Origin: an uncultured Christensenella sp.
Lineage (GTDB): Bacteria; Bacillota; Clostridia; Christensenellales; Borkfalkiaceae
Assembly (NCBI GenBank): GCA_910578655.1
Contig: CAJTQE010000003.1
Span: 1-44,456, forward strand
Length of the DNA stretch: 44,456 nucleotides
Direction: 5' to 3'
Part shown: positions 2,903-23,362 of the stretch, piece after piece
Position numbering within the stretch: position 1 is the first letter of the stretch
Layout of the letters: each line of letters starts with the position of its first letter
The notes under the pieces: model-generated
Seen by the model: the letters and a program-made list of their open reading frames with translations, nothing else
What the model was told of the DNA's origin: nothing
Databases searched by the model: none
Translations under genes and position numbers: made by a program

Positions 2903-2945
2903 AATTATATTGTGTATTATAATAATGCGTTTGTCAATAATTTAC

Positions 2946-2974
2946 TTGCAAAAATATTATTTGGCGTATATAAT
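2946..2974 (+). promoter_or_regulatory. Sigma-A type promoter TTGCAA-17-TATAAT upstream of dapF
   Basis: TTGCAA at 2946..2951, a 17-nt spacer, TATAAT at 2969..2974. The -10 box ends only 7 nt before the dapF ATG (2982). Confidence 0.4.
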
Positions 2975-2981
2975 ATTGTTG

Positions 2982-3812
2982 ATGAGATTTTATAAAATGC
3001 ACGGGCTTGGCAACGATTATATTTACTTCGATTGTATGCAGCGTGAAATTGCCGAACCCGAAAAACTATCCCTCCGCCTGTCGGACAGGCATTTCGGCAT
3101 CGGCGGCGACGGTATAATATTAATGTGCCCCTCTCAAAAAGCCGACTGCAAAATGCGTATGTTCAACGCCGACGGTTCCGAGGGAAAGATGTGCGGCAAC
3201 GGTATACGCTGCGTCGGCAAACTCTGCCGCGATTTGGGTTACGTAAAGGGCGATACCTGCACTGTTGAAACGTTGTCGGGTATAAAGAAGCTTAAATTCT
3301 TCTTTGGGAATGACGGCAAGGTTGAAGCCGTCCGCGTTGATATGGGCGCGCCCGTACTTTCGGGCAGGGACATTCCGTCAACCTTTTCGGGCGATACTGT
3401 TATCGGCAAGCCTTTAAATATTGACTTTGAAGAATATGCGGTCACTCTCGTAAATATGGGCAATCCGCACTGTGTGGTGTTCGCCGACCCCGATACCGTA
3501 GACATAGAAAAGCTTGGCAGAAAGTTTGAATATAATCCGGTTTTCCCCGACCGCGTCAATACCGAGTTCGTAAAAGTTATCGGCGACAACGCTTTGAAAA
3601 TGCGCGTATGGGAAAGGGGCAGCGGAGAAACGTTTGCCTGCGGAACGGGCGCGTGCGCCGCTGCTGTTGCCGCCGTTTTGAACGGGCTTTGCGATAAGTC
3701 AAGGGAAATTACCGTCAACCTTTTGGGCGGACAGCTTAAAATCGAATACCCTGATACCGTATATATGACGGGCAGTGCAACACTTGTTTTTACGGGCAGC
3801 GTGCAGTTATAA
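2982..3812 (+). CDS. dapF: Diaminopimelate epimerase
   Basis: ORF 2910..3812. Start moved to ATG 2982, giving the canonical N-terminus MRFYKMHGLGNDYIYFD. Both catalytic Cys contexts are present (GNGIRC, ACGTGA). Confidence 0.9.
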   Translation: MRFYKMHGLGNDYIYFDCMQREIAEPEKLSLRLSDRHFGIGGDGIILMCPSQKADCKMRMFNADGSEGKMCGNGIRCVGKLCRDLGYVKGDTCTVETLSGIKKLKFFFGNDGKVEAVRVDMGAPVLSGRDIPSTFSGDTVIGKPLNIDFEEYAVTLVNMGNPHCVVFADPDTVDIEKLGRKFEYNPVFPDRVNTEFVKVIGDNALKMRVWERGSGETFACGTGACAAAVAAVLNGLCDKSREITVNLLGGQLKIEYPDTVYMTGSATLVFTGSVQL

Positions 3813-6963: not shown

Positions 6964-7491
6964 ATGAGCTTGGAGAAAAAGCTTGCGCGAGCGCTGCAAA
7001 CAAATAACCATTCAAAAATCGAAAAGGTTTTTGAAGAAATTTACTATGAATACGGCAAGCTTGTAGGCTTTGTCATATCCAAATACGTACATAATAAAGC
7101 CGACGTGGAAGAGCTGGTTAACGACGTTTTTCTGGCGTTTTCAAAGGTTATGTTCAATACCGAAATAAGCAATATAAAGCGGTATCTGGCTGTAAGCGCG
7201 AAAAATGCTACAGTTAATTTTTTAAGACGTAAAAAGATAGAATGTGAAGAGTTTTCTTACGTTGAGAATTACGACGGCTACGGCGATGGATTGGGTTATT
7301 ACGATATTGCCCGCGAAATGCAAAAATGCCTCAGCATAGATGAGTTAAATACGGTGTTTTTACATATTGTCTACGGCTATTCGTTTACCGAAATCGCCAA
7401 AAGCATATCGCGCCCTCCAAGCTCGGTAAGCTCGCAGTATCATAGGGCAATAAAAAAATTAAAGAGCAAGGTGAATAAAAATGAAATTTAA
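6964..7491 (+). CDS. Sigma-70 family (ECF-like) RNA polymerase sigma factor
   Basis: 175 aa, RBS AAGGAG. Region 2-like VEELVNDVFLAFSK and region 4 HTH YGYSFTEIAKSISRPPSSVSSQYHRAIKKLK. Lies in the AT-rich islet. Confidence 0.8.
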   Translation: MSLEKKLARALQTNNHSKIEKVFEEIYYEYGKLVGFVISKYVHNKADVEELVNDVFLAFSKVMFNTEISNIKRYLAVSAKNATVNFLRRKKIECEEFSYVENYDGYGDGLGYYDIAREMQKCLSIDELNTVFLHIVYGYSFTEIAKSISRPPSSVSSQYHRAIKKLKSKVNKNEI

Positions 7492-8281
7492 AGATAACGA
7501 TTTTATAAATTTAGATTATTCTGATATCAAAGACGAAGTGAGTGAAAATATCCGCAAATCAACAGAAAGTAAAACTAAGATTAAAAGTTACCGCGGAGTT
7601 AATCTGAAAAAAGCACTCAGCTATGCACTATGCGTGATGCTTACCTGCGTGGTTTCCGTAGGTTCGACTTTGCTTATTCAGGGCAGTATGAAAGGCGGCG
7701 ACGGTATGGGAAGTAACGGTTCCCCCGGCAACGTTGATCCGGGGAAATCTCCCGAATTTGCGAAAAAAGAATTTGATGAGTTATTAGCTTTTGGTTCTTG
7801 GTGGTTGGAAAACGGTATTACGTTTACTGAAAATGTGAAATTTGATTTGCTTGGCACGGATATAATATCTGAAAGCGATAAAGACGCTATCAGAGAATTT
7901 GAGAAGGCTAACGGTAAGTCGGGGAAGAACGTCTATTATTATAATATCTATATGGGAATGAAAGACGGCAAAGATACGGTCGTTTTAAGTAGGTTAATAG
8001 CTCCTTATCAGACGTTTAAATTTGAAAGTAATTTGCAGTATTCGTTTTCAAGCGTTATAGAAAAATTTGAAGAATTAAGCGGTGAAGAGCTTACGCGAGA
8101 ATTTTTGCTTGATTCAACTTTTGATAACGACTATTATTATAGCGTTGGCGGTATCAGCGTCAGATTTATTTTGGATGCATTGAATTACAATCACCAAAAA
8201 GGGAAATCTTATATCGAATATTACAGTGCCATAATTGACGGGCAAGTTTATATTGTAACAAGTAAGCAATTGCTTAGTTAA
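7481..8281 (+). CDS. Single-pass membrane protein, possible anti-sigma partner
   Basis: Overlaps the sigma gene stop by 11 nt, suggesting translational coupling. About 45-aa cytoplasmic N-terminus, TM helix ALSYALCVMLTCVVSVGSTLLI, then an extracytoplasmic domain. No recognisable motifs. Confidence 0.45.
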   Translation: MKFKDNDFINLDYSDIKDEVSENIRKSTESKTKIKSYRGVNLKKALSYALCVMLTCVVSVGSTLLIQGSMKGGDGMGSNGSPGNVDPGKSPEFAKKEFDELLAFGSWWLENGITFTENVKFDLLGTDIISESDKDAIREFEKANGKSGKNVYYYNIYMGMKDGKDTVVLSRLIAPYQTFKFESNLQYSFSSVIEKFEELSGEELTREFLLDSTFDNDYYYSVGGISVRFILDALNYNHQKGKSYIEYYSAIIDGQVYIVTSKQLLS

Positions 8282-8305
8282 ATAAATTTTATAAGAGGTA
8301 AACTT

Positions 8306-9889
8306 ATGAAGAACTTTTTGAAAACCGCTACCGTTGCCTGCGCCGTGTTGGCGTTAGGTACGGGGCAAACTTTGACCGCGTTGGCAAATCATTTGCCTAA
8401 GGATGACCTTGTCATTACGGATGAATATACCGTAGAACAGATTGTCGAACAAAAGTTTGGTAAAGGCGATTATACTTATGAAAAGCTTGCAAGCTTTTCC
8501 GACACAGATAGGTTTACACTTGTTGAGGGCGATAAATGTTATTTGATTTACGATAATCAGCTTAATATCTTTATGGAATATTCAACTGAAAATAATTCAC
8601 CATATAAAGACGTGGATATGTCTACTAAAAAAGTTTATTACTCACCTACTTACTATTTTTACAAAATAGGCGATAGAATTTTTGATTTGTATGACGATAG
8701 CGAAGTTGACATTGAAGATATTAATTTATATAAAATGTCTGAAGAAAATTTGAAAGAATCAATTTTGCAAAGCAAAGCAGCAAACGCAAGCCTAAAAAGA
8801 AGTAGTTCACTTTTGACAAGCGAAAATAATGGCCCAAAATTTATTAAAAATTCATTTTATTTTGAGAATTTACGTTATAATAAAGGAACAAATACAAATA
8901 GCGTTTATCCTAACTCTTGTTCTTATGTTGCTCTTGAAATGTTTATGTCTTACTATGATACTTTTTATAATGATAACGTTATTGATGAAAAATATGACGT
9001 TACTGAAATTAAGAGTTTTTCAGATTATTATAGTATAAATATAAAAGACTTTTTACATTCACCTGGTATAGACGATAATTTTCATTCATTTTTGATTAAT
9101 TACGGGCAAACTCATGGTTATTCTTGTTTTAATAATAAAAATTGTATTCCGATTACAAATATGATTAAAGTTATGAATGAACTTCTTAATCCTAAAAATC
9201 TTTCTTTTACAGCGAATACTTCATACAATAGCTCAAACACTTTAAAATTATGTAAGGATGCTGTAGATGCAGATAGCCCGTTTATCGTATGGTTTCAAGG
9301 GAATGGTTCTGACGGTGAAAGAGACCATGATGTCGTTGGCTTTGGCTATAGTGGGGACGGTATTTATGTAAATTATGGCTGGAAAAATAGCAGATATAAT
9401 ATTTGTATATATGGGTATACTTTGAAACAGGTGATGTATATTAATTTTGAATCAGAGCATAGTTGTTCAAATAATTATCATTGGACTGTTAATGGAATTA
9501 CGGGAACAATTTGTCCGTGCGGCAAAAAGGTATGTAATCACGGAAGTAAAAAGCTATATAAATATGATGATACTTATCATAAATTGGGTTGTTTGGTTTG
9601 CGGCGGAGACTATACTTTAATAAATCACAGTTACGTGACCGACGGAGAGTATAAAACGTGCAGCGACTGTGGGCATAGAATTCATACAAACCATAGATTT
9701 ATATATACTCCGATATTCGGCGGAAAATATCATTGGGCGAGATGTCGTTGCGGTTATGAAAATAGAGAACCGTGTATGGGGTATGCCTCAGTGTTTGACC
9801 CGACTGTAAAATGTAATAAATGCGGTCAAACGGTAACTTCGGGATTCAAAACGGAAGATGAAAATCAACCGTCTTTCATAATAAAATAA
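8306..9889 (+). CDS. Secreted protein with putative papain-fold cysteine peptidase core and Cys/His-rich C-terminal region
   Basis: Signal peptide MKNFLKTATVACAVLALGTGQTLTALA. YPNSCSYVALEMFMSYYD and DHDVVGFGYSGDGIYVNYGW resemble the Cys and His/GW boxes of C10/C39-like peptidases; this is motif resemblance only. The C-terminal ~145 aa carries five CxxC/CxC pairs. Confidence 0.4.
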   Translation: MKNFLKTATVACAVLALGTGQTLTALANHLPKDDLVITDEYTVEQIVEQKFGKGDYTYEKLASFSDTDRFTLVEGDKCYLIYDNQLNIFMEYSTENNSPYKDVDMSTKKVYYSPTYYFYKIGDRIFDLYDDSEVDIEDINLYKMSEENLKESILQSKAANASLKRSSSLLTSENNGPKFIKNSFYFENLRYNKGTNTNSVYPNSCSYVALEMFMSYYDTFYNDNVIDEKYDVTEIKSFSDYYSINIKDFLHSPGIDDNFHSFLINYGQTHGYSCFNNKNCIPITNMIKVMNELLNPKNLSFTANTSYNSSNTLKLCKDAVDADSPFIVWFQGNGSDGERDHDVVGFGYSGDGIYVNYGWKNSRYNICIYGYTLKQVMYINFESEHSCSNNYHWTVNGITGTICPCGKKVCNHGSKKLYKYDDTYHKLGCLVCGGDYTLINHSYVTDGEYKTCSDCGHRIHTNHRFIYTPIFGGKYHWARCRCGYENREPCMGYASVFDPTVKCNKCGQTVTSGFKTEDENQPSFIIK

Positions 9890-12348: not shown

Positions 12349-12387
12349 GATATAAAAGAAATTTTAGAATGATATAAAAGAAATTTT
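12344..12387. repeat. Perfect tandem duplication of a 22-bp unit (AGAATGATATAAAAGAAATTTT x2)
   Basis: Copy 1 at 12344..12365 and copy 2 at 12366..12387 are identical. The unit overlaps the -10 box and ends at the RBS (GGGGAG 12388..12393). Confidence 0.95.
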
Positions 12388-12397
12388 GGGGAGTTTT

Positions 12398-13756
12398 ATG
12401 GAAGAAAAAATCGAAAACGAAAACGGAATATCTTTGGGTTACATTTTCCGTACTATTTTTTCACAAAAATGGCTGGCGCTTATAATAGCGGTTGCAATTA
12501 CGCTTGCCGGCACTTTTGGTTTATATTTTTTAGGCAAGAGCAATGAGGTTTATTCGGTTACGTTCGTTTCCAAAATACCCGGTTCCGAAAGTTCTCCTCA
12601 GGCATTCGATTTCCCTGACGGTAAAGAATTCCGTTATGAAGTGATTGTTTCTTACGACAACCTTAAAAAAGCAAAGGACCAAAACAAGCTTTTCGACGGT
12701 ATTGATATACAAAAAATGTACGAGAAAGGTGACATTTCCATAATCCGTACCCTGAAAGAAACAGCCAGCGGTTCCAAAGAATACGAGGCCACTTATAAGA
12801 TTGATGCGAAAGCAAAATATTTTAAAGAAAGCGCTGTTGCACGCGATTTTTTAACCGAGTTGACCCTGTTCCCCGTTCGCTATCTCGAAAGTATGAGTAT
12901 CGACTATGACAAGTCGTTGGAAGCTTCCCGTGAGGCAATTCAGTACGACGTCCGTCTTAGTTATCTCAACGACCAGTTGACATATTTAAACGAAGAATAC
13001 AATAAACTTATAGAAAAATACAGCGAAAACTTTGTAGTGAAGGACGGCAAAACGCTCAACTATTATAAGTCACAGCTTTTAACTTACAGTGACAGGGGAG
13101 ATATAGACCGTCTTAAAATAAAGGCTATTGACGAGCATATTGTAATGGGTGACGAAAACGGACAGCCCCTTGAAGCCGCTATTGCAAAATACAAGTCGCA
13201 GAAGGTCGAGAAAGTGAGAGAAAGGGACAGGATTCAGGCGGCTTTGAAAAATGCCATTGCAAGCGTCCGCCCCGAATCGGGTTCGATAATTCTCGACGCC
13301 GATGCGATAATGAACTACACTATAAGAATTGCTGAGCTTGACCAGGACATTGCCGACATTCAAAAGTTTATCGATGAAAGCCGTGTAAGCGCAGAATTCG
13401 AAGCGGAAGTCGAGGCCGTTGAAACTAAATTAAGCGAGCTGACCAATCTGTATTCGGAAGTAGCGTCTGCCGTTTATTCAAGCAAAACCATTGTCAATTA
13501 TATGAATACGAATATTATTGCAATAGAGAACGGAAGAGGCATAGTGATGAGCGCGGCCATTTCACTCGTGCTCGGTCTTGCCGCAGCGGCAGTAGTTGCC
13601 TATATCGTAGGTTGGAGCAAGCAGAAAAAAGTTCGGGTTAAACAATTCGTAAATATGCCCGTTTACGGTGAAGCGCGGCTGCAAATTGCAGTCAGCGACG
13701 AAACGCATGGTGATGAGGAAAACCGTCCTATTGAAGAACAAGACAAAAAAGAATAA
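12398..13756 (+). CDS. Wzz/polysaccharide-copolymerase-like bitopic membrane protein
   Basis: ORF 12386..13756. Start moved to ATG 12398, which has GGGGAG 4 nt upstream. N-terminal Wzz-like segment plus TM (ISLGYIFRTIFSQKWLALIIAVAITLAGTFGLYF), a ~330-aa coiled-coil-rich external region, a C-terminal TM (MSAAISLVLGLAAAAVVAYIVGW), and an acidic tail. Assignment rests on topology and the N-terminal motif only. Confidence 0.5.
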   Translation: MEEKIENENGISLGYIFRTIFSQKWLALIIAVAITLAGTFGLYFLGKSNEVYSVTFVSKIPGSESSPQAFDFPDGKEFRYEVIVSYDNLKKAKDQNKLFDGIDIQKMYEKGDISIIRTLKETASGSKEYEATYKIDAKAKYFKESAVARDFLTELTLFPVRYLESMSIDYDKSLEASREAIQYDVRLSYLNDQLTYLNEEYNKLIEKYSENFVVKDGKTLNYYKSQLLTYSDRGDIDRLKIKAIDEHIVMGDENGQPLEAAIAKYKSQKVEKVRERDRIQAALKNAIASVRPESGSIILDADAIMNYTIRIAELDQDIADIQKFIDESRVSAEFEAEVEAVETKLSELTNLYSEVASAVYSSKTIVNYMNTNIIAIENGRGIVMSAAISLVLGLAAAAVVAYIVGWSKQKKVRVKQFVNMPVYGEARLQIAVSDETHGDEENRPIEEQDKKE

Positions 13757-13863: not shown

Positions 13864-16230
13864 ATGACCGAACTTGAAAAAATTTTAAAATTCATATCTC
13901 CGCACAGGCAGCCCGACGAAGCGTTTTTCAGGGAACTGCTTGACTTCGGACGTCAGCGGACTTACGAGGACGAGCGGATAAGGGCGGTTATGCTTGCGCT
14001 TAAAGCATTGCATATAAATAAGCTTAAATCAAAGATAACCGATGCAAAGCGCCGCCGCGAGCAGTTAAATTCGGGTGAACACACTGCCGAAAGTTTTAAG
14101 CAGGTAACTGCGCTGGACGCAGAAATCAAAAACCTTAACGCAAAGCTTTTTTTATATAAACCCTTGTTTGACGAGCCGTATTTTGCACGTATGGATTTGG
14201 TTGACGATAAAGAAGGATACAACAGTTATTATATAGGCAAACGCGGCGACCAGACCCTTGAAATAGTAGACTGGCGCGCTCCTCTTGCAAGAAGATACTA
14301 CCAAAAAAGCCAGACGGCTTTTAAAATAAACGATTATAATTATAAACTTATCCTGCGCCGCGCACTGCGCACGGGCGGCGGCAAAGTGCTCGATATGAAA
14401 AACGAATATCTTTCGGTAAAGGGATACCTTTCGCAAGAGGAAATTGCCGGCAGGGATGAGGCGATTATATTCGACCCCTTTTTAAAGGAAATACTTGAAA
14501 CGCGCAAGGAAAAGCGCGAAATTTGCGACATAATCGAAACTATACAGGAAAAACAGTACGAAATTATCACCCTGCCCGAAGCCGCCGAATTCGCTTTGCA
14601 GGGCGTTGCCGGCAGCGGAAAAACTATGATAATGCTGCACAGGCTGTCATATATATTATATAACAATGAAAGCCTGCGCCCTTCCGACGTTCTGATGGTT
14701 ACGCCGTCAAACTCGTTCAACGCGTTCATTGACGAACTTGCAAAAATTCTGGAGTTGGAACGGGTTAAAACATCGACTTTGGACGGTTATTTTCTGAGCG
14801 TGTTAAAGAATTGCGGCGTTGACGCGGAAAAGATGCTCGACCCGTTTCTGCCGTTGCCGAAAGAGTTTTTAAGTTACGTTTACAGCCGAAAGTTCGTGGA
14901 TGAAATACGGAAAAAACTTGCAAAAATATACGACGGAATCTACGGTATGTTCGCATCCGACGGTTGCAGGGAGGTGGCTGAAAATGTTTCGGACGCCCTG
15001 AAAAGGCAGGAAGAGCGGTATTTTGCAATTAAGAATGCAAGCCTGAGGGTAAGGCGTTCGGTACTCGGCGAGATAAAGGAAAAGGCGGACGGAGGACTTT
15101 ACTACACCAAGCAGTTCAGAAATATGTTTAACTGTATAACGGACGTAAGGGAATTTTTAGGGCTGTTTTCCGACGGACGAATGGGCGAGCAAGCGTTCTT
15201 TTACCGGCAGTTACTGTCATTCTACAAATCGCTTAAATTCCTGTCAAAGTACTCTGAAAAAATTTGTTTGAACGCCGTATCGGATTTAAACGCGCTTTGC
15301 GTTTCCGTCGAAAAAGAGATTTCCGACCTTAAAAGATACAAGATAACCGTCGACGGCATTGAACGTCTGACCTACGCCGAAAGGATAGAAAAGCGCGAAC
15401 AGCTTAAAAAAGAAATTTCGGAAGCGGTGCGGTCCGTTCAAGCAATCGCGGAGGAGTTTGTTCCTCTGTACGATTTTGCCGAAGTGCTGCGCGGGGAAAA
15501 TTATTTGGTAGCCGTCGGCAAGTGTCAGACTACTTACGATATTTTGCGGTTTTTCTACCGTGAAACCGTCAAAAAAATAAAGAACCGTTTTTCCGTAACC
15601 ACCAAAAAGCTGTGCGCTGCCGACCCGTATGCGCTGTGCCTTATATTGTGCGAACTCGGTTTGCCGCTGACACCGAAATACAGATTCATATTCGTGGACG
15701 AGGCGCAGGATATTTCACTGCCCGAATACGAGGTGCTGCGCGCAATCAACGACAGGGCGGCGTTCAACATCTTCGGCGATTTAAAGCAGAATATTACTCC
15801 GTATCGCGGAATTAAAGATTGGGGCGAGCTTGGCTATAAGCAATTTAATCTGAGTTTGAATTACCGCAATACCAACAAAATAGTAGATTTTGTGTCGGGC
15901 AACCTTGCGATAGATATGCAGGCGATAGGCACGGAGGGCGGAGAGGTTGATATAATTTCAAGCCGTGCCGTAACCAAATATCTTTCCGCTTGCGGCGGAC
16001 TCAGTGCGGTTATTTGTTCCGAGGCGAAGCTGCCTGACTATATAAGAAAGAGCTATAACGTCGTGCGCAGCACGGGGCGCATTTCAAAAAGCAAAATCAA
16101 TATTATGACCGTCTACGAAAGTAAAGGACTTGAATTTACTTCGGTTGCCGTTGCCGACGGGGATATGTCCGATAACGAAAAATATATTGCCTATACCCGT
16201 GCGTTAAAAAATTTAGCTTTGATAAGATAA
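13864..16230 (+). CDS. helD: HelD-like UvrD-family (SF1A) helicase / RNA polymerase recycling ATPase
   Basis: 788 aa. N-terminal coiled-coil region followed by PYFARMDL...YYIGKRG...IVDWRAPLARRYY, a HelD hallmark as I recall it from B. subtilis HelD. Walker A GVAGSGKT (14602..14625), Walker B FIFVDEAQD, C-terminal VYESKGLEF. Confidence 0.75.
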   Translation: MTELEKILKFISPHRQPDEAFFRELLDFGRQRTYEDERIRAVMLALKALHINKLKSKITDAKRRREQLNSGEHTAESFKQVTALDAEIKNLNAKLFLYKPLFDEPYFARMDLVDDKEGYNSYYIGKRGDQTLEIVDWRAPLARRYYQKSQTAFKINDYNYKLILRRALRTGGGKVLDMKNEYLSVKGYLSQEEIAGRDEAIIFDPFLKEILETRKEKREICDIIETIQEKQYEIITLPEAAEFALQGVAGSGKTMIMLHRLSYILYNNESLRPSDVLMVTPSNSFNAFIDELAKILELERVKTSTLDGYFLSVLKNCGVDAEKMLDPFLPLPKEFLSYVYSRKFVDEIRKKLAKIYDGIYGMFASDGCREVAENVSDALKRQEERYFAIKNASLRVRRSVLGEIKEKADGGLYYTKQFRNMFNCITDVREFLGLFSDGRMGEQAFFYRQLLSFYKSLKFLSKYSEKICLNAVSDLNALCVSVEKEISDLKRYKITVDGIERLTYAERIEKREQLKKEISEAVRSVQAIAEEFVPLYDFAEVLRGENYLVAVGKCQTTYDILRFFYRETVKKIKNRFSVTTKKLCAADPYALCLILCELGLPLTPKYRFIFVDEAQDISLPEYEVLRAINDRAAFNIFGDLKQNITPYRGIKDWGELGYKQFNLSLNYRNTNKIVDFVSGNLAIDMQAIGTEGGEVDIISSRAVTKYLSACGGLSAVICSEAKLPDYIRKSYNVVRSTGRISKSKINIMTVYESKGLEFTSVAVADGDMSDNEKYIAYTRALKNLALIR

Positions 16231-16251
16231 ATGTAATTTGTCAATAATCTA

Positions 16252-16280
16252 TTGTCAGGCGATATAAAATATGATAGAAT
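16252..16280 (+). promoter_or_regulatory. Sigma-A promoter TTGTCA-17-TAGAAT with extended -10 (TGa)
   Basis: TTGTCA at 16252..16257, a 17-nt spacer ending in TGA, TAGAAT at 16275..16280. RBS GAGGAA and ATG 16344 lie downstream. Confidence 0.5.
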
Positions 16281-16343
16281 GAGTATGCGCGCTTGCGTGT
16301 GAAGAATTACCCGAAAAAATACATCTGTTGAGGAATTGTCCGT

Positions 16344-19300
16344 ATGGCTAATAAAGCGAAAAGCACAAGTATGATTGAATTAGAGGGCGAACTTTTAAAT
16401 GCGGTAAGCTATGCAACCTTTTATTGCAGGCTGCCGCTGTTTACGACTTTTAAAATTTTTAACCGTTCGGAAGAGAACGTCCAAAACGTCACCGTCAGTA
16501 TAAGCGGAAACGAGCTTATTTTGCCGACGGAAATTTCCGTTGCGGAAATTCCGCACGAAAGCAGCGTTTCCGTTACTGCGGAAAATATCTTAAACCCCAA
16601 ATACCTTGCGGATTTAGAGCAACCCGAGAAATGTAAGGTTGTCATTAAACTTACGCACGGCAAAGAAAACGTATGTGCTTTAAAGACCGAAGTGCTTGCC
16701 CTGCCCATAGACAGTTGGAGCGGACTTTCCGGCAATGCGGAAATGCTTGCCGCGTTCGTGCGCCCTAAACTTGCCGACTGCCAAAAAATTCTTGCAGAGG
16801 CAGGTTTGCAGTTAAAGACGTGGGGCTATTCGTCGGAGTGGAGCGGTTATGCGGGCAACGACAGAAACGCTGTCCGCAATGCCGTTGCCGCAGTATATTC
16901 GGCGATACGCCACCTCAATATCGAGCGTAAGGCAAGCGCAGATTTAACCGAAACGGTCAGCACGGGCGATATAAGCAAAATCGTAAAAAACAAAAGCGCT
17001 ACACCTTTAGAGCTTGCGCTTTTCACTGCGTCCTGCTTTGAGGCGACAAAATTAAATCCCGTCATAGTTATAGGTAAAAATAAAGTGGGCGTCGGCGTAT
17101 GGCTCTATGAAAGCTGCTTTTCGTGTTCCGTACAGGACGATATTTCCGTCGTCGAAAGATATATTATGGACGGCGTAAACAACCTTGCCGTTGTAGATTG
17201 CGACGATATGTTCGCGCACAAGAACGCAAGCTTTACAACGAGCGCGTCGCACTTCGAATCGTTCATACGCAGTAATTCGTTCGACGTCTGCCTCGACATT
17301 AAGCGCAGCAGAATAGGTGGAATTTTTCCTCTGCCTTTAAAGGTGAAAACAAAATCCGGATACGAGCTTCTGGACGATAAAGAGCTTTCGTACAGTGCAA
17401 AACCGCGTCAGCTTATCGACGCAAGCAAGTACGAATATTCGCGTACGGAATCAAAGGACAAGTCCTGGCAAAGGCGACTTCTCGATTTGTCGCTAAGGAA
17501 CAATCTTTTAAACTTCCGTTATAAGCGTGAGTGCCTGCACCTTCTGTCGTCGGATTTGTCGGCGTTCTGCGAACGGCTTGCACTCAAAGATAAATTCAAA
17601 TTAAGCCCCCCGGCGTCGGCGATAAAGGACGCGGCGTACTTCGGCGGCGCAACCGTCAAGAGTATGGAGGAACTTATCGCGATAGAGATGAAGTCGGGGC
17701 AGCTCAGGTGCTATTCAAGCGCGGACACTCTCTCCGAAGTAGTTACCTCGCTTATAAGAAAATCGCGCGCGTCGGAGGAAGAGACGGGCGCAAAGACGCT
17801 GTATCTTGCGTTCGGATTTCTCAAATGGAAAAATAAAAACGACAGCGAAGGCAAATTTGCGCCGCTCGCGCTTATGCCCGTCAACGTCAAAAAGGGAAAG
17901 AATTCGGTCATTAATATAGAGGTCGGCGAGAGTTACGAAGTCAATACCACGCTGCTTGAATTTTTGAAACAGGAATTCGGAATAGACATTCGCGGCCTTG
18001 ACGGTAAAGAGCTTTCGCCCAAGGAAATAATCACGGTGTTCCGCGCAAAGACGGCGAATATGAAAGGCTGGGCGGTCTATGAGGACGTCTATCTTTCGCA
18101 GTTCACTTTCGCCCGTTACGCAATGTGGGCGGACGTAAAAAAGAATATTTCGGAATACAGGAAAAATCCGCTTATTGCAAGCTTGCTTACAAATGCGAAT
18201 AAAATGGAAAACAACAAACTTTCGGGCGAAGTTGAGGACGACGGGGAGCCGTGTTCGGTTATAACGCCGCTGCCCTGCGACAGTACACAGTACGCCGCCG
18301 TTGCAGAGTCGGCAAAGGGAACGACTTTCGTTTTGCACGGCCCGCCCGGAACGGGCAAAAGCCAGACCATTACCAATATGATAGCCAACGCAATATTCAG
18401 CGGTAAGCGCGTACTTTTCGTCGCTGAAAAGCAAGCCGCTTTGTCGGTCGTAAAAAAGCGTCTTTCGGAGATAGGCATCGGCGATTTCTGTATGGAACTT
18501 CATTCGGGCAAGAGCGCGGATAAGGGTGAAATAGTCCGCTCTATAGAAAGCACTCTTGCGCTGAAATGTCGGCTTTCGGACGATAAATTCATCGCCGCAG
18601 GCGAAAGAATCAAGTCGGCGCGAGGCACTTTGAGGGCGCCTTTGGACGCACTGCACAGAAAGCGCAGGCTGGGCGTATCCGTCTACGAGGCGATTTTATA
18701 TTACTTGCAGAATAAAAATGCGCCGGAACTCGTCGACATAGAAAGCACGTTTTACGATTCGCTGACCGAAGAAAAACTTGCCGAGTGCGAAAAGATGCTT
18801 ATCACATCGCAGGCTGCGGCTGAGGAGTGCGGCGGAGTATACCGTTCGCCTTTTTCGGGGGTATGCCTCACGGAATGCGACAGGGGCGTAAGGACGGGCG
18901 TTCTGTGCGCTGCGGAAGTGCTGGTTGCCGAACTTAAACATTTAAAAAACTATATTGCGCTTTTCAACGATACTTTCAATCAAAAAGTAAGCAAGTTTAC
19001 CGCGCTTAAATTAAAGTCGCTTTCAAGCATTTTAGGCATTTTGAAAAGCGGCGAACTTGACGAATTTTACGAATGCGACGAAACGGAATTTTATAAATTC
19101 TATAACGCTAATATTCAGTACGACAGCGCAATTAAGCTTTGGGCAAACCGTTTTAAAACTCTGCCCGAAATAGGCAAACTTGCAGATAAAATCGATTCGG
19201 AACTTGAAAATTGGGGCGATAACTACCGTTCGTCCAAACATTTGCTGACCATATTAAAGAGAATGAACAAGTGTACCGACACTCCTTTAAAAGAAAGGGA

Positions 19301-21959
19301 AGAGGTGGACTGGTTAAAGAGGGCGAAAGAGCTTGAGGAATATAAAAAGCGTATGTTCTCGAATACCAAATTAGGCGTTCATTTTTCGGCTATGGGCGGC
19401 GGCATAAACGCAAAAAAGCGCGAGGACTTTTTAAAACCGCTGTACGACTTGCATACTCTGTGTTCACAGGTATTTATGGACTACAACGCAGACGCGTTCA
19501 ACAGCGTATGTATAGGCGCAAGCGGCGGACAGTTGAAGCCGCTTGTAACGGGGCTTATGCTTGCGATAGCTTCTTTTAACAAGAGCTGCGAAACGTTTTT
19601 AAAGACCCTTAAAATAGACAAAAAGGAAACGGCGGACTGCGATTTGTTCGAATACTATACCGTCAAGTGTAATGCGCTTATCGACAATATCGATATGCTT
19701 CCGGCCTGGTGCCTTTACAAGTCCACTGCCAAAGGGCTTGAAGACAACGGACTTAAATTTATGACTGCCGCAATGGAAAGCGGAAGAATAAGCGGAAGTG
19801 CGATTCTGTCTTCGTTCAGAAAAAACGTTTACAGAAACTTTATTCAAACCAACATTCCCGCCGATGAAGATTTGGCTGCGTTTTCTGCAAGCGTGCAGGA
19901 GGCAACGGCGGCGTCGTACGCGCAGCTTATCGAAGAGTTTAACGAGCTTACGCGCACTTACTTGCGCGACGTGCTGATTTCGCGTCTGCCCGAACCCGAA
20001 ACGGAGGGTCCGCTTGCGCTTGAACTTATGGCGTTTAACCGCAGTATAAAGGGCAATATGCGCGGTTTCAATATCAGAAATCTGTTTACGGAAGTACCTC
20101 AGCTTATGCGCATAGTCGCGCCCTGTATGCTGATGAGTCCGGTAACCGTTTCGCAGTACCTGCCCGCCGACCCCGAGCTGTTCGATACGGTAATCTTCGA
20201 CGAAGCGTCGCAGATGCCCACATGCGAGGCGGTTCCGTCGCTTGCGCGCGCAAAGAGCGCGATTATCGTCGGCGACCCTAAGCAGATGCCGCCCACGACG
20301 TTCTTTACTGTGTCCGGTCAGGACGAGGACAATCCCGAAACTGAAGATTTGGAATCGGTTTTGGACGACTGCCTTGCGCTCGGCATACCCGAAAAGCATC
20401 TCGTATGGCATTACCGTTCGAAGCACGAAAGTCTGATAGCGTTCTCGAACATAATGTATTATTCGGGCAGACTTTGCACTTTCCCGTCGCCCGACGCGCT
20501 TGAAAGCAAGGTTACTATGAATTACCTTGAAGACGGCGTTTACGAAAGGGGCGGAACCAAATGCAACAAAAAGGAGGCAGCCGCGCTCGTAGACGAGGTT
20601 ATAAAAAGACTTCAGGACAGCAGACTTAAAAATTCAAGCATAGGAATAGTGACTTTCTCAACCCCTCAGCAGGTGTTGATAGAGCGTATGCTTTCAAAGA
20701 AAATTTCCGAAAAGCATCTTGAGGACGTTGCGTACGAAAGGGAGGAACCGCTGTTTGTCAAAAACCTTGAAAACGTACAGGGTGACGAACGCGACGTAAT
20801 TTTATTCTCGGTGTGCTACGGTCCGGACGCGCAGGGCAGAATTTCCCTGAACTTCGGCCCGTTAAACCAACTCGGAGGTTGGCGCAGGTTAAACGTTGCA
20901 GTGTCGCGCGCAAGGGAAGAGATGATTGTATTCTCGTCTATGCGCTATTCTATGATAGATATGTCGCGCACCAATTCGCGCGGTGTGGCCGGACTTAAAT
21001 CTTTTCTTGAATTTGCCGAAAAGGGAAGAACGAGCATTTCCGTCAAGTCCAATGAAATTATACTGAATAAGCAGGGCATAGGTAAATTCATTGCCGAAGA
21101 GCTTTCGTCATACGGCTACGAATGCCGTTGCGACGTCGGCGTTTCCGACTTTAAAATCGACGTCGGAGTGGTAGACCCTCAAAACAGGCACAACTTTATT
21201 CTTGCCGTGCTTTGTGACGGTTCGCAAAGTTCGTTCTCGGTCAAGGACAGAACTATTTTGCAGGTTCAGACCCTTAAACGCAACAACTGGAACGTGGTCA
21301 GGCTGTACGCGTTAAACTTCTTCAACAACCCCAAACGTGAAATTAAAAAGATTAAAGACTTCCTCGACAGACTGACCGCAAGCGCGAAACCGTCTGTTTC
21401 AAGCTTCAAAAAACCTTATAAGGCTTGCAAGGCAGACGTAAAGGAATGTACGCCCGACTATATTTTAAGCGGCAAAAACGACGCGGAAGTAGTGCGCGTC
21501 ATTAAGGCGGTCGTCGCTGCGGAGGAGCCTATTTCGCATCAGTTTTTAATAAAGCGTACGCTTGCGCAGTACGGAATATCGAAGTTCGGCATAAAGCTTG
21601 AAAACAAGCTGACTGCGCTTATCAGGCTGTGCGGCTTCGGAAGAAGCAAAATTCTCGGCAACAAATATTATTTCCGTACCGATAAATATTCCGGGTTTGA
21701 CAGGTACCGCGTGGAGGAGGGAACCCCCTTGCGTTCCGCCGACACGGATTTTACTCCGTATGATATAATTTCGCTTGTAAAGGGAATTCTGTTAAACAGG
21801 GTCAGCGTATACGTGGAAGAGCTTCTCCCTGCAGTATTGCGGGAACTCAAAGTCCGCTCGTCGGAAAAATTCACCACGTTTATATCCGCCTGCATTGACG
21901 AGGGCGTGAAACGCGGCATATTCATAAGAAGTATTTCGGACAAGTTGACTTTATCGTAA
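16344..21959 (+). CDS. Giant SF1B (Upf1/DNA2-like) helicase with DUF4011-like N-region, REase-fold (DUF559/Vsr-like) domain and DUF3320-like C-terminus
   Basis: 1871 aa. LLDLSLRNNLLNFR motif, Walker A GPPGTGKSQT (18339..18362), DEASQ (20199..20213), GDPKQMPPT, WHYRSKHESLI, VQGDERDVILFS, LNVAVSRAREE. Next comes CDVGVSDFKIDVGVVDP...LAVLCDG...DRTILQVQTLKRNNWNVVRLY, which looks like a PD-(D/E)xK-type fold. The tail contains EEPISHQFLIKRTLAQYGI. Confidence 0.85.
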   Translation: MANKAKSTSMIELEGELLNAVSYATFYCRLPLFTTFKIFNRSEENVQNVTVSISGNELILPTEISVAEIPHESSVSVTAENILNPKYLADLEQPEKCKVVIKLTHGKENVCALKTEVLALPIDSWSGLSGNAEMLAAFVRPKLADCQKILAEAGLQLKTWGYSSEWSGYAGNDRNAVRNAVAAVYSAIRHLNIERKASADLTETVSTGDISKIVKNKSATPLELALFTASCFEATKLNPVIVIGKNKVGVGVWLYESCFSCSVQDDISVVERYIMDGVNNLAVVDCDDMFAHKNASFTTSASHFESFIRSNSFDVCLDIKRSRIGGIFPLPLKVKTKSGYELLDDKELSYSAKPRQLIDASKYEYSRTESKDKSWQRRLLDLSLRNNLLNFRYKRECLHLLSSDLSAFCERLALKDKFKLSPPASAIKDAAYFGGATVKSMEELIAIEMKSGQLRCYSSADTLSEVVTSLIRKSRASEEETGAKTLYLAFGFLKWKNKNDSEGKFAPLALMPVNVKKGKNSVINIEVGESYEVNTTLLEFLKQEFGIDIRGLDGKELSPKEIITVFRAKTANMKGWAVYEDVYLSQFTFARYAMWADVKKNISEYRKNPLIASLLTNANKMENNKLSGEVEDDGEPCSVITPLPCDSTQYAAVAESAKGTTFVLHGPPGTGKSQTITNMIANAIFSGKRVLFVAEKQAALSVVKKRLSEIGIGDFCMELHSGKSADKGEIVRSIESTLALKCRLSDDKFIAAGERIKSARGTLRAPLDALHRKRRLGVSVYEAILYYLQNKNAPELVDIESTFYDSLTEEKLAECEKMLITSQAAAEECGGVYRSPFSGVCLTECDRGVRTGVLCAAEVLVAELKHLKNYIALFNDTFNQKVSKFTALKLKSLSSILGILKSGELDEFYECDETEFYKFYNANIQYDSAIKLWANRFKTLPEIGKLADKIDSELENWGDNYRSSKHLLTILKRMNKCTDTPLKEREEVDWLKRAKELEEYKKRMFSNTKLGVHFSAMGGGINAKKREDFLKPLYDLHTLCSQVFMDYNADAFNSVCIGASGGQLKPLVTGLMLAIASFNKSCETFLKTLKIDKKETADCDLFEYYTVKCNALIDNIDMLPAWCLYKSTAKGLEDNGLKFMTAAMESGRISGSAILSSFRKNVYRNFIQTNIPADEDLAAFSASVQEATAASYAQLIEEFNELTRTYLRDVLISRLPEPETEGPLALELMAFNRSIKGNMRGFNIRNLFTEVPQLMRIVAPCMLMSPVTVSQYLPADPELFDTVIFDEASQMPTCEAVPSLARAKSAIIVGDPKQMPPTTFFTVSGQDEDNPETEDLESVLDDCLALGIPEKHLVWHYRSKHESLIAFSNIMYYSGRLCTFPSPDALESKVTMNYLEDGVYERGGTKCNKKEAAALVDEVIKRLQDSRLKNSSIGIVTFSTPQQVLIERMLSKKISEKHLEDVAYEREEPLFVKNLENVQGDERDVILFSVCYGPDAQGRISLNFGPLNQLGGWRRLNVAVSRAREEMIVFSSMRYSMIDMSRTNSRGVAGLKSFLEFAEKGRTSISVKSNEIILNKQGIGKFIAEELSSYGYECRCDVGVSDFKIDVGVVDPQNRHNFILAVLCDGSQSSFSVKDRTILQVQTLKRNNWNVVRLYALNFFNNPKREIKKIKDFLDRLTASAKPSVSSFKKPYKACKADVKECTPDYILSGKNDAEVVRVIKAVVAAEEPISHQFLIKRTLAQYGISKFGIKLENKLTALIRLCGFGRSKILGNKYYFRTDKYSGFDRYRVEEGTPLRSADTDFTPYDIISLVKGILLNRVSVYVEELLPAVLRELKVRSSEKFTTFISACIDEGVKRGIFIRSISDKLTLS

Positions 21960-22001: not shown

Positions 22002-22031
22002 AAAAAAACGGACTTTCAAGTCCGTTTTTTA
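22002..22031. terminator. Bidirectional intrinsic terminator between convergent genes
   Basis: Stem AAAAAAACGGACT / AGTCCGTTTTTT with loop TTCA, flanked by A-run and T-run. The stop codon of the minus-strand orphan lies in the loop. Confidence 0.8.
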
Positions 22032-22762
22032 TTTTGCTCCCATTTAAGCATTTTCATTTCAAAAAGTTTTATGTAGCAGGGGATGATAAATTCAAAACAG
22101 GAGAATAAAGCTAAAATATAGTCTAAACTATCGCAGTCGTCATTTTTAAGGTAAAATTTTCCTTTATTATTTTTAATTAAGCGCATTAAAAACGGTGAAA
22201 TGTACGGCAAATCTTTAATATAACGGTCAATTCTTTTTCCTTGTTTTACTTTTTTAAGCTTAATTGCAATTATAAATTCAGCTGCTATCAAACAGTACCC
22301 GTGCAGAGCATCTCTATCAAAAGATTTGTCAAAATTGCTTTCATTGATTTCCGTATTTATAATTTCAGCAAAAATGGGGTAAATGTTTTTTAAGTAGTTG
22401 TCTATACCGTATTTAAAGGGATATATTTCATTCTCATCTCCATAATACGTTTTGTATTTTGGCGCTTGGGCAAACATATAGTTTATTCTGTTGCAGAAAA
22501 CCAAAAAACACGCCTTATCAAAGTTTTCAATGAAAATGTTGAAATAGTCTTTAATAAAGGTTACTTGTGAAAAATCTACCGCTTTATGTAATTCTAATTC
22601 TACAAAATATTTGTCAAACGGTATAGTGTCGCCTATATTTATCTGCTTAAACGCTACGTTTTCAGCATAATAGTTTTTTATTAAAGTATTTACTTGAATA
22701 TCAGTGAAAACATTTGATTGTTCTTCTATAATCTCACTTTTACTAAACTTTTGTTGTTTCAT
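22016..22762 (-). CDS. Hypothetical protein (AT-rich orphan, no recognisable motif)
   Basis: ORF 22016..22909. Start moved to ATG 22762, which has GGAGAAAA directly upstream on the minus strand. 248 aa, rich in K/N/I/F/Y, no signal peptide. Divergent from the XRE gene. Confidence 0.6.
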   Translation of the reverse strand: MKQQKFSKSEIIEEQSNVFTDIQVNTLIKNYYAENVAFKQINIGDTIPFDKYFVELELHKAVDFSQVTFIKDYFNIFIENFDKACFLVFCNRINYMFAQAPKYKTYYGDENEIYPFKYGIDNYLKNIYPIFAEIINTEINESNFDKSFDRDALHGYCLIAAEFIIAIKLKKVKQGKRIDRYIKDLPYISPFLMRLIKNNKGKFYLKNDDCDSLDYILALFSCFEFIIPCYIKLFEMKMLKWEQNKKRT

Positions 22763-22830
22763 TTTTCTCCTTTGTAAAATGAGGATATTTTTGTAAAAAG
22801 GTATACTGTTGTGGGCTATCAAGCATTTTT

Positions 22831-22844
22831 CCCACAATTGTGGG
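22831..22844. promoter_or_regulatory. Perfect 14-bp palindrome CCCACAATTGTGGG (putative XRE operator), copy 1
   Basis: Located 12 nt upstream of ATG 22857 and overlapping the only purine-rich RBS candidate (GTGGGA). An extra half-site TTGTGGG sits at 22809..22815. Confidence 0.5.
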
Positions 22845-22856
22845 AATATGTTTAAT

Positions 22857-23066
22857 ATGGAAGACAAATTTAAAGACAGACTTAAAGAGTTGAGGCAAGA
22901 TAAGCACATTGGTCAAAAAGCATTGGCAAAAATTTTGAATATCAGTCACGGAGCTATCAGCTTTTGGGAAAACGGACAGCGTGAGCCTACTATGAGTAGT
23001 TTGATAGCTTTGGCTGATTATTTTGATGTTTCAATAGACTACCTTGTCGGCAGAAAAAATGATTAA
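22857..23066 (+). CDS. XRE-family helix-turn-helix transcriptional regulator, copy 1
   Basis: 69 aa starting at the internal ATG (MEDKFKDRLKELRQDKHIGQKALAKILNISHGAISFWENGQREP...DYFDVSIDYLVGR), a canonical Cro/CI-type HTH. The TTG start at 22809 in the ORF track is unlikely. Confidence 0.85.
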   Translation: MEDKFKDRLKELRQDKHIGQKALAKILNISHGAISFWENGQREPTMSSLIALADYFDVSIDYLVGRKND

Positions 23067-23126
23067 TTAGTTTAAAAGATTATAATAGATTATAGGGTAT
23101 ACTGTTGTGGGCCGTCAAGCATTTTT

Positions 23127-23140
23127 CCCACAATTGTGGG
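23127..23140. promoter_or_regulatory. Perfect 14-bp palindrome CCCACAATTGTGGG (putative XRE operator), copy 2
   Basis: Same element exactly 296 bp downstream of copy 1. Extra half-site TTGTGGG at 23105..23111. Confidence 0.5.
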
Positions 23141-23152
23141 AATATGTTTAAT

Positions 23153-23362
23153 ATGGAAGACAAATTTAAAGACAGACTTAAAGAGTTGAGGCAAGATAAG
23201 CACATTGGTCAAAAAGCATTGGCAAAAATTTTGAATATCAGTCACGGAGCTATCAGCTTTTGGGAAAACGGACAGCGTGAGCCTACTATGAGCAGTTTGA
23301 TAGCTTTGGCTGATTATTTTGATGTTTCAATAGACTACCTTGTCGGCAGAAAAAATGATTAA
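23153..23362 (+). CDS. XRE-family helix-turn-helix transcriptional regulator, copy 2
   Basis: Protein identical to copy 1, with one synonymous difference (Ser AGT vs AGC). Confidence 0.85.
   Translation: MEDKFKDRLKELRQDKHIGQKALAKILNISHGAISFWENGQREPTMSSLIALADYFDVSIDYLVGRKND

Follow-up and report, generated by a model that had tools for sequence, protein, structure and literature searches.

The window analysed here – 44,456 nucleotides (nt) of contig CAJTQE010000003.1 from an uncultured Christensenella sp. (assembly GCA_910578655.1) – holds at 16344..21959, on the forward strand, a sole long and uninterrupted open reading frame (ORF) that starts with ATG and encodes a helicase-nuclease of 1871 amino acids (aa). 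Profile comparisons identify the product as a divergent member of the ProA / PDC-S37 family, related to Hhe; the family, its architecture and its anti-phage label are already known. The ProA family at large is mobile and defence-associated. In the clade to which the window belongs – gut Clostridia with records labelled Christensenella, Christensenellaceae, Coproplasma, Scatosoma and Gallimonas – the gene is vertically inherited in the core genome, and its protein lacks two residues of an N-terminal catalytic triad. We lean, with modest confidence, towards regarding it as a catalytically trimmed, chromosomally fixed variant of an immune helicase-nuclease whose output would be immunity against phages and plasmids.

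Family membership and domain architecture

Membership of the family is evident from two profile collections. The best PADLOC match is PDC-S37 (PDLC05009, 7e-280), which aligns aa 373-1856 with positions 11-1534 of its 1550, and Hhe is also matched (6e-135). The NCBIfam model NF058533.1, 'anti-phage protein ProA', scores 1459.8 bits, its positions 1-1711 aligning with aa 22-1682 and a second stretch adding to the match; taken by themselves, the N-terminal 372 aa match ProA positions 1-330 at 1.6e-54. Relatives within the clade score 1449 and 1509 bits, and canonical relatives from Flavihumibacter, Paenibacillus and Acetobacter reach 2147-2268 bits over the full 1903-position model, a difference that sets the window protein at the edge of the ProA equivalog. 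An earlier note, made from the letters of the window, had held the family to be uncharacterised and without an experimentally defined role; the catalogued matches, and the fact that Hhe has been tested experimentally, overturn that view. Our full-text literature searches returned nothing on ProA or PDC-S37; what surfaced was usage of Hhe, a 2013 paper on the architecture and a DUF4011 gene of P. aeruginosa.

The order of domains is collinear with that of ProA: an N-terminal domain, DUF4011, a superfamily 1B (SF1B) helicase with a large insertion, a Vsr-type restriction endonuclease (REase) and a tail. DUF4011 covers aa 378-541 (17475..17966; Pfam 3.7e-32) and includes LLDLSLRNNLLNFR at aa 379-392. 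The N-terminal part of RecA1 follows at 18279..18470, recognised by Pfam AAA_11 and by a PDB match to IGHMBP2, with Q649 of the Q-motif and the Walker A sequence GPPGTGKS (K672), itself part of GPPGTGKSQT (aa 666-675, from nt 18339). RecA1 is then interrupted by an insertion of about 560 aa (aa 710-1270, 18471..20153) that is family-wide, conserved in alignments and equivalent to PDC-S37 profile positions 359-928. The remaining helicase core (20154..20963; Pfam AAA_11/AAA_12, with Sen1 and Upf1 matches) contains the Walker B sequence DEASQ (aa 1286-1290, nt 20199-20213), motif III GDPKQ within GDPKQMPPT (aa 1310-1318), WHYRS within WHYRSKHESLI (aa 1355-1365), motif V QGDER, VQGDERDVILFS at aa 1478-1489, and motif VI VSRAR within LNVAVSRAREE (aa 1516-1526). 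Pfam E-values for the core are 2e-16 (AAA_11) and 5.6e-17 (AAA_12). Since the nearest solved structures by sequence are the helicase cores of IGHMBP2, Sen1 and Upf1, the Upf1-like SF1B class is confirmed; when the whole protein was compared with PDB sequences the matches were confined to this core, and no solved close relative was found.

Downstream of the helicase lies the Vsr-type REase fold MTES_1575 (PF18741; aa 1583-1674, 21090..21365), which scores 60.7 bits against a cut-off of 38.2 (1.4e-16) and carries the block CDVGVSDFKIDV...LCDG...KDR...W at aa 1596-1655. The tail (aa ~1704-1871, 21453..21956) comprises two predicted winged-helix domains and is DUF3320-like, as judged from the model, from Foldseek and from PMC3710099; Pfam DUF3320 itself is sub-threshold (17.7 bits against a cut-off of 25, E = 0.0035), the fold being backed by the model. 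That model, of aa 1545-1871, has a mean predicted local distance difference test score (pLDDT) of 81.5, with the winged-helix part mostly at 80-96. Foldseek pairs its nuclease with the DUF559/Vsr-like nucleases 3hrl and I-Bth0305I (3r3p), at TM-scores of 0.68 and 0.73 (normalised by target length and used for small single-domain targets only), and its tail with the winged-helix modules of cullin WHB, Cdt1, SelB and ScpB. Foldseek searches of the N-terminal and C-terminal models against the PDB gave no match at E <= 0.001.

The residues expected of a working enzyme are retained. In an alignment of 77 full-length relatives from many phyla Q649, G669, K672, S673, D1286, E1287, Q1290 and G1310 are invariant (77/77), as are D1311, Q1314, R1358, Q1479, G1480, E1482, R1483 and R1522. 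Within the nuclease D1606, D1635 and W1649 are invariant (77/77), R1636 is present in 74 of the 77 and D1625 in 71; the window protein carries all five, although which of them are catalytic is a choice that we infer. Both the SF1B ATPase/helicase core and the Vsr-type nuclease domain are thus intact at the level of motifs, and the protein probably still works as an ATP-driven nuclease. On most points of architecture the earlier note read the gene well: the ORF and every quoted motif lie where it placed them, its insert of 'about 620 aa' between Walker A and Walker B measures 614 aa from K672 to D1286, Pfam returns the same DUF4011, Upf1/DNA2-like helicase and DUF559/Vsr-type nuclease, the acidic residues that it wished to see in the REase-like fold are kept, and the DUF3320-like tail, sub-threshold in Pfam, has the support of the model.

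A further question is how the protein stands to the known systems. The window protein matches most of the PDC-S37 profile, its N-terminal 372 aa falling outside; PDC-S37 is moreover a candidate defined by defence association, an association that the window clade lacks. Hhe, reportedly described by Gao et al. in 2020 (PDLC02194 / NF042953), likewise unites DUF4011, an SF1 helicase and a Vsr-type nuclease in one gene, and its C-terminal half strongly resembles aa ~1067-1691 of the window protein. Its profiles, however, miss the N-terminal domain and match the insertion weakly, and the window protein scores 653.3 bits on NCBIfam Hhe_antiphage against a cut-off of 2000; for these reasons we treat Hhe as a sister family and not as the same protein. 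Hhe protects against lambda, T3, T7 and PhiV-1, and the nuclease-site mutant E1731A abolishes its weak T7 protection (bioRxiv 10.1101/2022.06.16.496414); T7 class II DNA-metabolism genes behave as its triggers (PMC11482910).

Giant proteins combining a transglutaminase-like domain, an SF-I helicase, a Vsr-family REase and two winged helix-turn-helix domains overlapping DUF3320 were described by Anantharaman et al. in 2013 (PMC3710099), who proposed the MTES_1575-type members as a modification-independent, restriction-like defence. These members have an extra N-terminal HEPN RNase and an apparently active transglutaminase, whereas the triad of the window protein is dead and a Pfam scan of it detected no HEPN domain. 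Type II Mokosh (MkoC) and Nhi share the fusion of an Upf1-like SF1 helicase with a nuclease in one immunity protein, and the earlier comparison with such single-gene systems is sound. The window nuclease, however, is of Vsr rather than PLD type and the domain order differs: Pfam found no PLD domain in the window protein, PADLOC matched no Nhi model, and the PADLOC matches to MkoC (1e-29) and MkoA (4e-27) are confined to helicase residues ~1356-1555.

The N-terminal module and its triad

Two parts make up the N-terminal module: a predicted beta-sandwich at aa 11-119 (16374..16700), likened by Foldseek to Ig-like and MG-type sandwiches, and a core at aa ~130-345 (16731..17378) which, from alignments and model topology, likely has a transglutaminase-like fold, in agreement with PMC3710099. 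The AlphaFold model of the region, built on 26 homologues, has a mean pLDDT of 87.7 and a predicted template modelling score of 0.84. In it the core runs from a helix at 221-234 to strands at 239-243 and 248-253, and the sequence TPLELALF...GVWLYE occupies aa 220-256. Remote homologues carry GTCLDL at the start of the helix, GH.F.G.WL on the next strand and then DD – a layout that corresponds to the Cys-His-Asp arrangement of transglutaminase/papain-like enzymes. At these positions the window protein has P221 for Cys and K247 for His, and retains D266; a transglutaminase/papain-like core lacking the Cys had been suggested, as speculation, by the earlier note, and the homologues bear this out. 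The fold is only likely because direct fold and profile support is weak: the Foldseek matches of the core are 3kd4 (1e-3) and factor XIII (8e-3), and Pfam Transglut_core matched one of the 26 homologues (E = 0.011). The N-terminal profile found nothing significant among PDB sequences (arrestin-like noise at E ~0.4), and the domain had no matches in PHROGs or PADLOC; neither the PDC-S37 nor the Hhe profile extends over these 372 aa.

Among 1.84 billion representative proteins the region of ~372 aa occurs in 1268 clusters; short fragments aside, almost all of these have it at the N-terminal end, or close to it, of a protein of ~1800-2400 aa. It is an integral domain of the family. Its triad divides the 77 relatives. 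Cys-His-Asp is kept by all but three (L045, L062 and L087) of the members at or below 33% identity to the window protein, a group drawn from Bacteroidota, Paenibacillus, Ruminococcus, Proteobacteria, Planctomycetota and Actinobacteria; the window protein and every member at or above 34% identity (37/37) have lost both Cys and His. The dead domain is nonetheless strongly conserved in the alignment and confidently modelled. This clade-wide loss of the triad appears to be undescribed in the literature that we searched.

Locus, divergence and variable slots

The gene is embedded in a setting of housekeeping genes. On one side lie spoIIE, an orphan gene of 456 aa and a HelD-like gene, on the other dapB-dapA-asd; farther out in the window are lgt, the gene for inorganic pyrophosphatase, dapF, an aminotransferase gene and malQ. 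The immediate upstream neighbour (13864..16230, forward strand) encodes a HelD-like protein of the UvrD family, matched by HelD_BACSU (1.5e-29) and HelR (3e-25), both below their cut-offs. The HelD family is an RNA-polymerase recycling factor. A Gabija-like identity for this helicase was considered and rejected: its GajB matches stay within the generic C-terminal part of UvrD, GajA is absent, and NCBIfam ranks HelD and HelR as the best matches.

This arrangement recurs across the clade. Full length is constant in more than 120 protein clusters (64-100% identity), and their contigs show either a neighbourhood like that of the window or one of helD-like / comEC-holA-DAC, DAC being a gene with a diadenylate-cyclase domain. 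Among 80 species-representative genomes the HelD-like gene adjoins the ProA-like gene in 15 loci. Downstream of the latter stands comEC-holA-DAC in 14-15 loci, some of them with a protein at only 48-52% identity, and dapB-dapA in six. With the HelD-like protein as bait, metagenomes gave 19 informative loci, and in 18 of them the ProA-like gene was adjacent. The exception, L102, has the HelD-like gene followed by a small gene, with no ProA-like gene within 10 kb; it belongs to a subclade (L099-L104, among loci L088-L110 examined) in which a small gene stands between the HelD-like and ProA-like genes. The HelD-like pairing and the core-gene behaviour described below both appear to be undescribed in the literature searched.

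Distant relatives with an intact triad keep other company. Their two nearest neighbours per side include type I restriction-modification genes, Cas1/Cas2/Cas8, a DRT-type reverse transcriptase-protease and mad2/mad3, as well as HEC-01A, PDC-S22, GmrSD and transposases, and relatives occur on 491 plasmid records; it is these neighbours and plasmids that mark the family as mobile and defence-associated. Canonical ProA thus resides in defence islands or on plasmids, whereas the window gene is fixed in the chromosome in a housekeeping context, which echoes the DUF4011 gene of P. aeruginosa, a core gene flanking a defence hotspot (PMC10250203). The earlier note had supposed an accessory or defence neighbourhood and looked for defence-island enrichment among homologues; the HelD-like neighbour, the spoIIE and dapB-dapA-asd flanks and a synteny that holds down to 48% identity tell against the former, and the loci of the clade show a core-genome context in place of the latter, the first of the outcomes that the note itself had named as refuting its view. 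A scan of IMG/VR viral contigs with two peptide patterns from the family alignment found no relatives, a weak negative. In five Bacteroidota loci (L068, L069, L072, L074 and L077; Flavobacteriales, Sphingobacteriaceae and Chitinophagaceae) a conserved DUF2130 gene of 410-421 aa lies directly upstream of canonical Cys-His-Asp ProA on the same strand, and may be a ProA partner in that phylum.

Divergence of the protein follows that of its neighbours. Pairwise identities, taken from multiple alignments, correlate with those of ComEC/HolA/DAC at r = 0.98 (13 species, 78 pairs), and in 78 of the 78 pairs the ProA-like protein is the more conserved (mean 56.7% against 43.5%). Against the HelD-like protein r is 0.91, with the ProA-like protein more conserved in 90 of 105 pairs (66.5% against 63.4%); against DapB/DapA r is 0.57 over 15 pairs and conservation is similar (72.8% against 73.2%). 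These values indicate purifying selection on the protein at least as strong as that on its essential neighbours.

As for expression, consensus matches alone nominate a sigma-70-like promoter candidate on the forward strand at 16252..16280 (TTGTCA-17-TAGAAT with TG extension), a second promoter candidate at 16219-16248, a Shine-Dalgarno sequence GAGGA at 16330..16334 (forward strand), 9 nt 5' of the ATG, and a bidirectional intrinsic-terminator-like hairpin at 22003..22030, with a 12-bp stem and T-runs on both sides. Between the end of the upstream gene (16230) and the ORF at 16344 there is no terminator-like site, so that transcription may read through from the HelD-like gene, and the two are possibly co-transcribed. 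The claim that the gene has its own promoter and terminator stands as far as candidate sites go.

Several other features of the window vary among relatives. Between the ProA-like gene and dapB lies an AT-rich XRE/orphan module (22.0-23.4 kb, ~30% GC). It contains, on the reverse strand at 22016-22909, an orphan ORF of ~250-297 aa that matches nothing in Pfam, PADLOC, NCBIfam or PHROGs. It also contains a tandem direct duplication of 267 nt (22800-23066 and 23096-23362; spacing 296 nt) whose copies are 99-100% identical; both encode an 85-aa XRE/Cro-type helix-turn-helix (HTH) protein (HTH_3 3.1e-16, phrog_8) and carry the same small hairpin TTCCCACAATTGTGGGAA. In relatives the same slot holds an FAD/Rieske oxidoreductase (L001) or a DUF898 protein (L002), or is empty (L004). 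The module that the earlier note had seen is real, but since the filling of the slot varies it lies outside the conserved context of the gene; the XRE pair and the orphan ORF could be a small strain-specific accessory module.

Upstream, the 456-aa ORF (12386-13756, forward strand, TTG start, ~35% GC at its 5' end) has no family match; it is kept between spoIIE and the HelD-like gene in five related loci at 33-47% identity, against 67-83% for its neighbours, and so evolves far faster than they do. A low-GC block at 6964-9889 (forward strand, 32-38% GC) encodes an extracytoplasmic-function-type sigma factor (Sigma70_r2/r4), an unknown protein of 266 aa and one of 527 aa that has a weak Peptidase_C39-like match. 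It is probably an insertion: L001 and L004 lack the block at the equivalent site, where spoIIE or a small toxin-antitoxin set comes next after malQ. In L004, a relative 83% identical, that set is a PhdYeFM/ParE pair with an HTH gene (2916-3473) between malQ and spoIIE; with the sigma-factor block of the window at one and the same site, this appears to be a recurrent insertion point.

Immunity or housekeeping

How might a trimmed immune helicase-nuclease act? Its winged helices and DUF4011 would place the enzyme on nucleic acid that is aberrant or foreign, for example the replication and recombination intermediates of phages and plasmids; the SF1B motor would translocate 5'->3' on ATP, and the Vsr-type domain would nick or cleave the nucleic acid. 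The dead transglutaminase-like module would perform neither protein cleavage nor cross-linking, and would be retained for structure or for ligand binding, as a sensor or autoinhibitor. The protein would then stand guard against invading DNA constitutively, fixed in its lineage, and would not be a mobile defence cassette. In favour of this reading are the family assignment, the motifs of helicase and nuclease, the chromosomal fixation, the nuclease-dependent protection given by Hhe, and the plasmids and defence genes (type I restriction-modification, CRISPR-Cas, DRT, MADS and GmrSD) among which canonical ProA is found.

Several points weigh against an immune role. For the window clade that role is inferred from relatives, and substrate (DNA or RNA), polarity and trigger are drawn from family membership only. 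The term 'anti-phage' comes to ProA solely through its NCBIfam name; the score of the window protein falls just under the 1500-bit equivalog cut-off of that model and far under that of Hhe_antiphage, where the best stretch is aa 1067-1691. Loss of the triad deprives the protein of one or more of the activities of canonical ProA. For 109 neighbours, taken from the window and 27 clade loci, PADLOC reported only UvrD cross-hits and one MADS locus, and the pattern of conservation is the one expected of a housekeeping gene and not of a typical defence gene.

We give a smaller though real share of belief to the possibility that the protein is a domesticated housekeeping enzyme, engaged in genome maintenance or in transcription-coupled surveillance such as removal of R-loops or stalled complexes in the manner of Sen1 or IGHMBP2; it may act with the adjacent HelD-like factor, and loss of the triad may mark the shift from immune effector. 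Such a role accords with core-gene synteny in species down to 48% identity, with divergence that tracks the flanking genes (r = 0.98) and conservation above that of HolA, the DAC-domain protein and ComEC in all 78 pairs, with a HelD-like gene directly upstream in 18 of 19 informative loci and no terminator-like site between, and with closest solved helicase cores in IGHMBP2, Sen1 and Upf1. The near absence of defence neighbours (the UvrD cross-hits and the MADS locus apart), the weak negative from viral contigs with the patterns used, and the core status of the P. aeruginosa DUF4011 gene (PMC10250203) point the same way. But adjacency to the HelD-like gene may be no more than inherited synteny: several lineages (L005, L012, L017 and the clade members below 50% identity) lack it, and locus L102 has the HelD-like gene without a ProA-like one. 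The nuclease, of restriction type, keeps all family-invariant residues just as in immune relatives; members of the family have no known housekeeping role; and lineage-fixed defence genes exist. Somewhat more doubtful is the fullest version of the idea, in which an immune-type protein of the ProA/Hhe lineage has become an essential-like housekeeping factor in a whole order of gut Clostridia, its protease/transglutaminase effector chemistry lost. Together with the HelD-like motor it would remove or cleave nucleic-acid structures where transcription or replication complexes have stalled.

Two further explanations carry far less weight. The helicase and nuclease in one polypeptide, the AT-rich XRE/orphan insertion just downstream and the weak PADLOC GajB matches of the upstream helicase speak for the earlier proposal of a previously uncharacterised single-gene immunity family in an accessory or defence island. 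That proposal is now improbable: catalogues already hold the family (PDC-S37, ProA, Hhe-related) and PMC3710099 described it, the GajB matches are to a generic UvrD domain of a HelD-like neighbour, and the context is core and syntenic, the AT-rich module being strain-specific filling of a variable slot. Least probable of all, to the point of being nearly negligible, is that the gene is a decaying or non-functional relic of a defence gene persisting in the chromosome. Loss of the triad and a score below the ProA cut-off are what such a relic might show; but the 5.6-kb ORF is intact and does not vary in length across more than 120 clusters (64-100% identity), all helicase and nuclease motifs are intact, even the dead domain is strongly conserved and confidently modelled, and essential genes nearby are less conserved than the protein.

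Whether guard or housekeeper, automated tools will label this gene as phage defence, yet here it is core-gene-like in a large and poorly studied gut group, and more conserved than DNA polymerase III delta. This counsels caution against counting every PDC-S37, ProA or Hhe-like match as mobile immunity. As a natural separation-of-function variant – helicase and nuclease intact, triad dead – the protein offers a probe of the role of the ProA N-terminal domain, and it lets one ask whether the basal activity of the family is genome surveillance rather than phage-specific defence; the conserved HelD-like pairing is a testable lead. Were conversion to housekeeping true, bacteria would have their own counterpart of Sen1/Upf1-type surveillance, and the exchange of functions between immunity and housekeeping would have a documented example.

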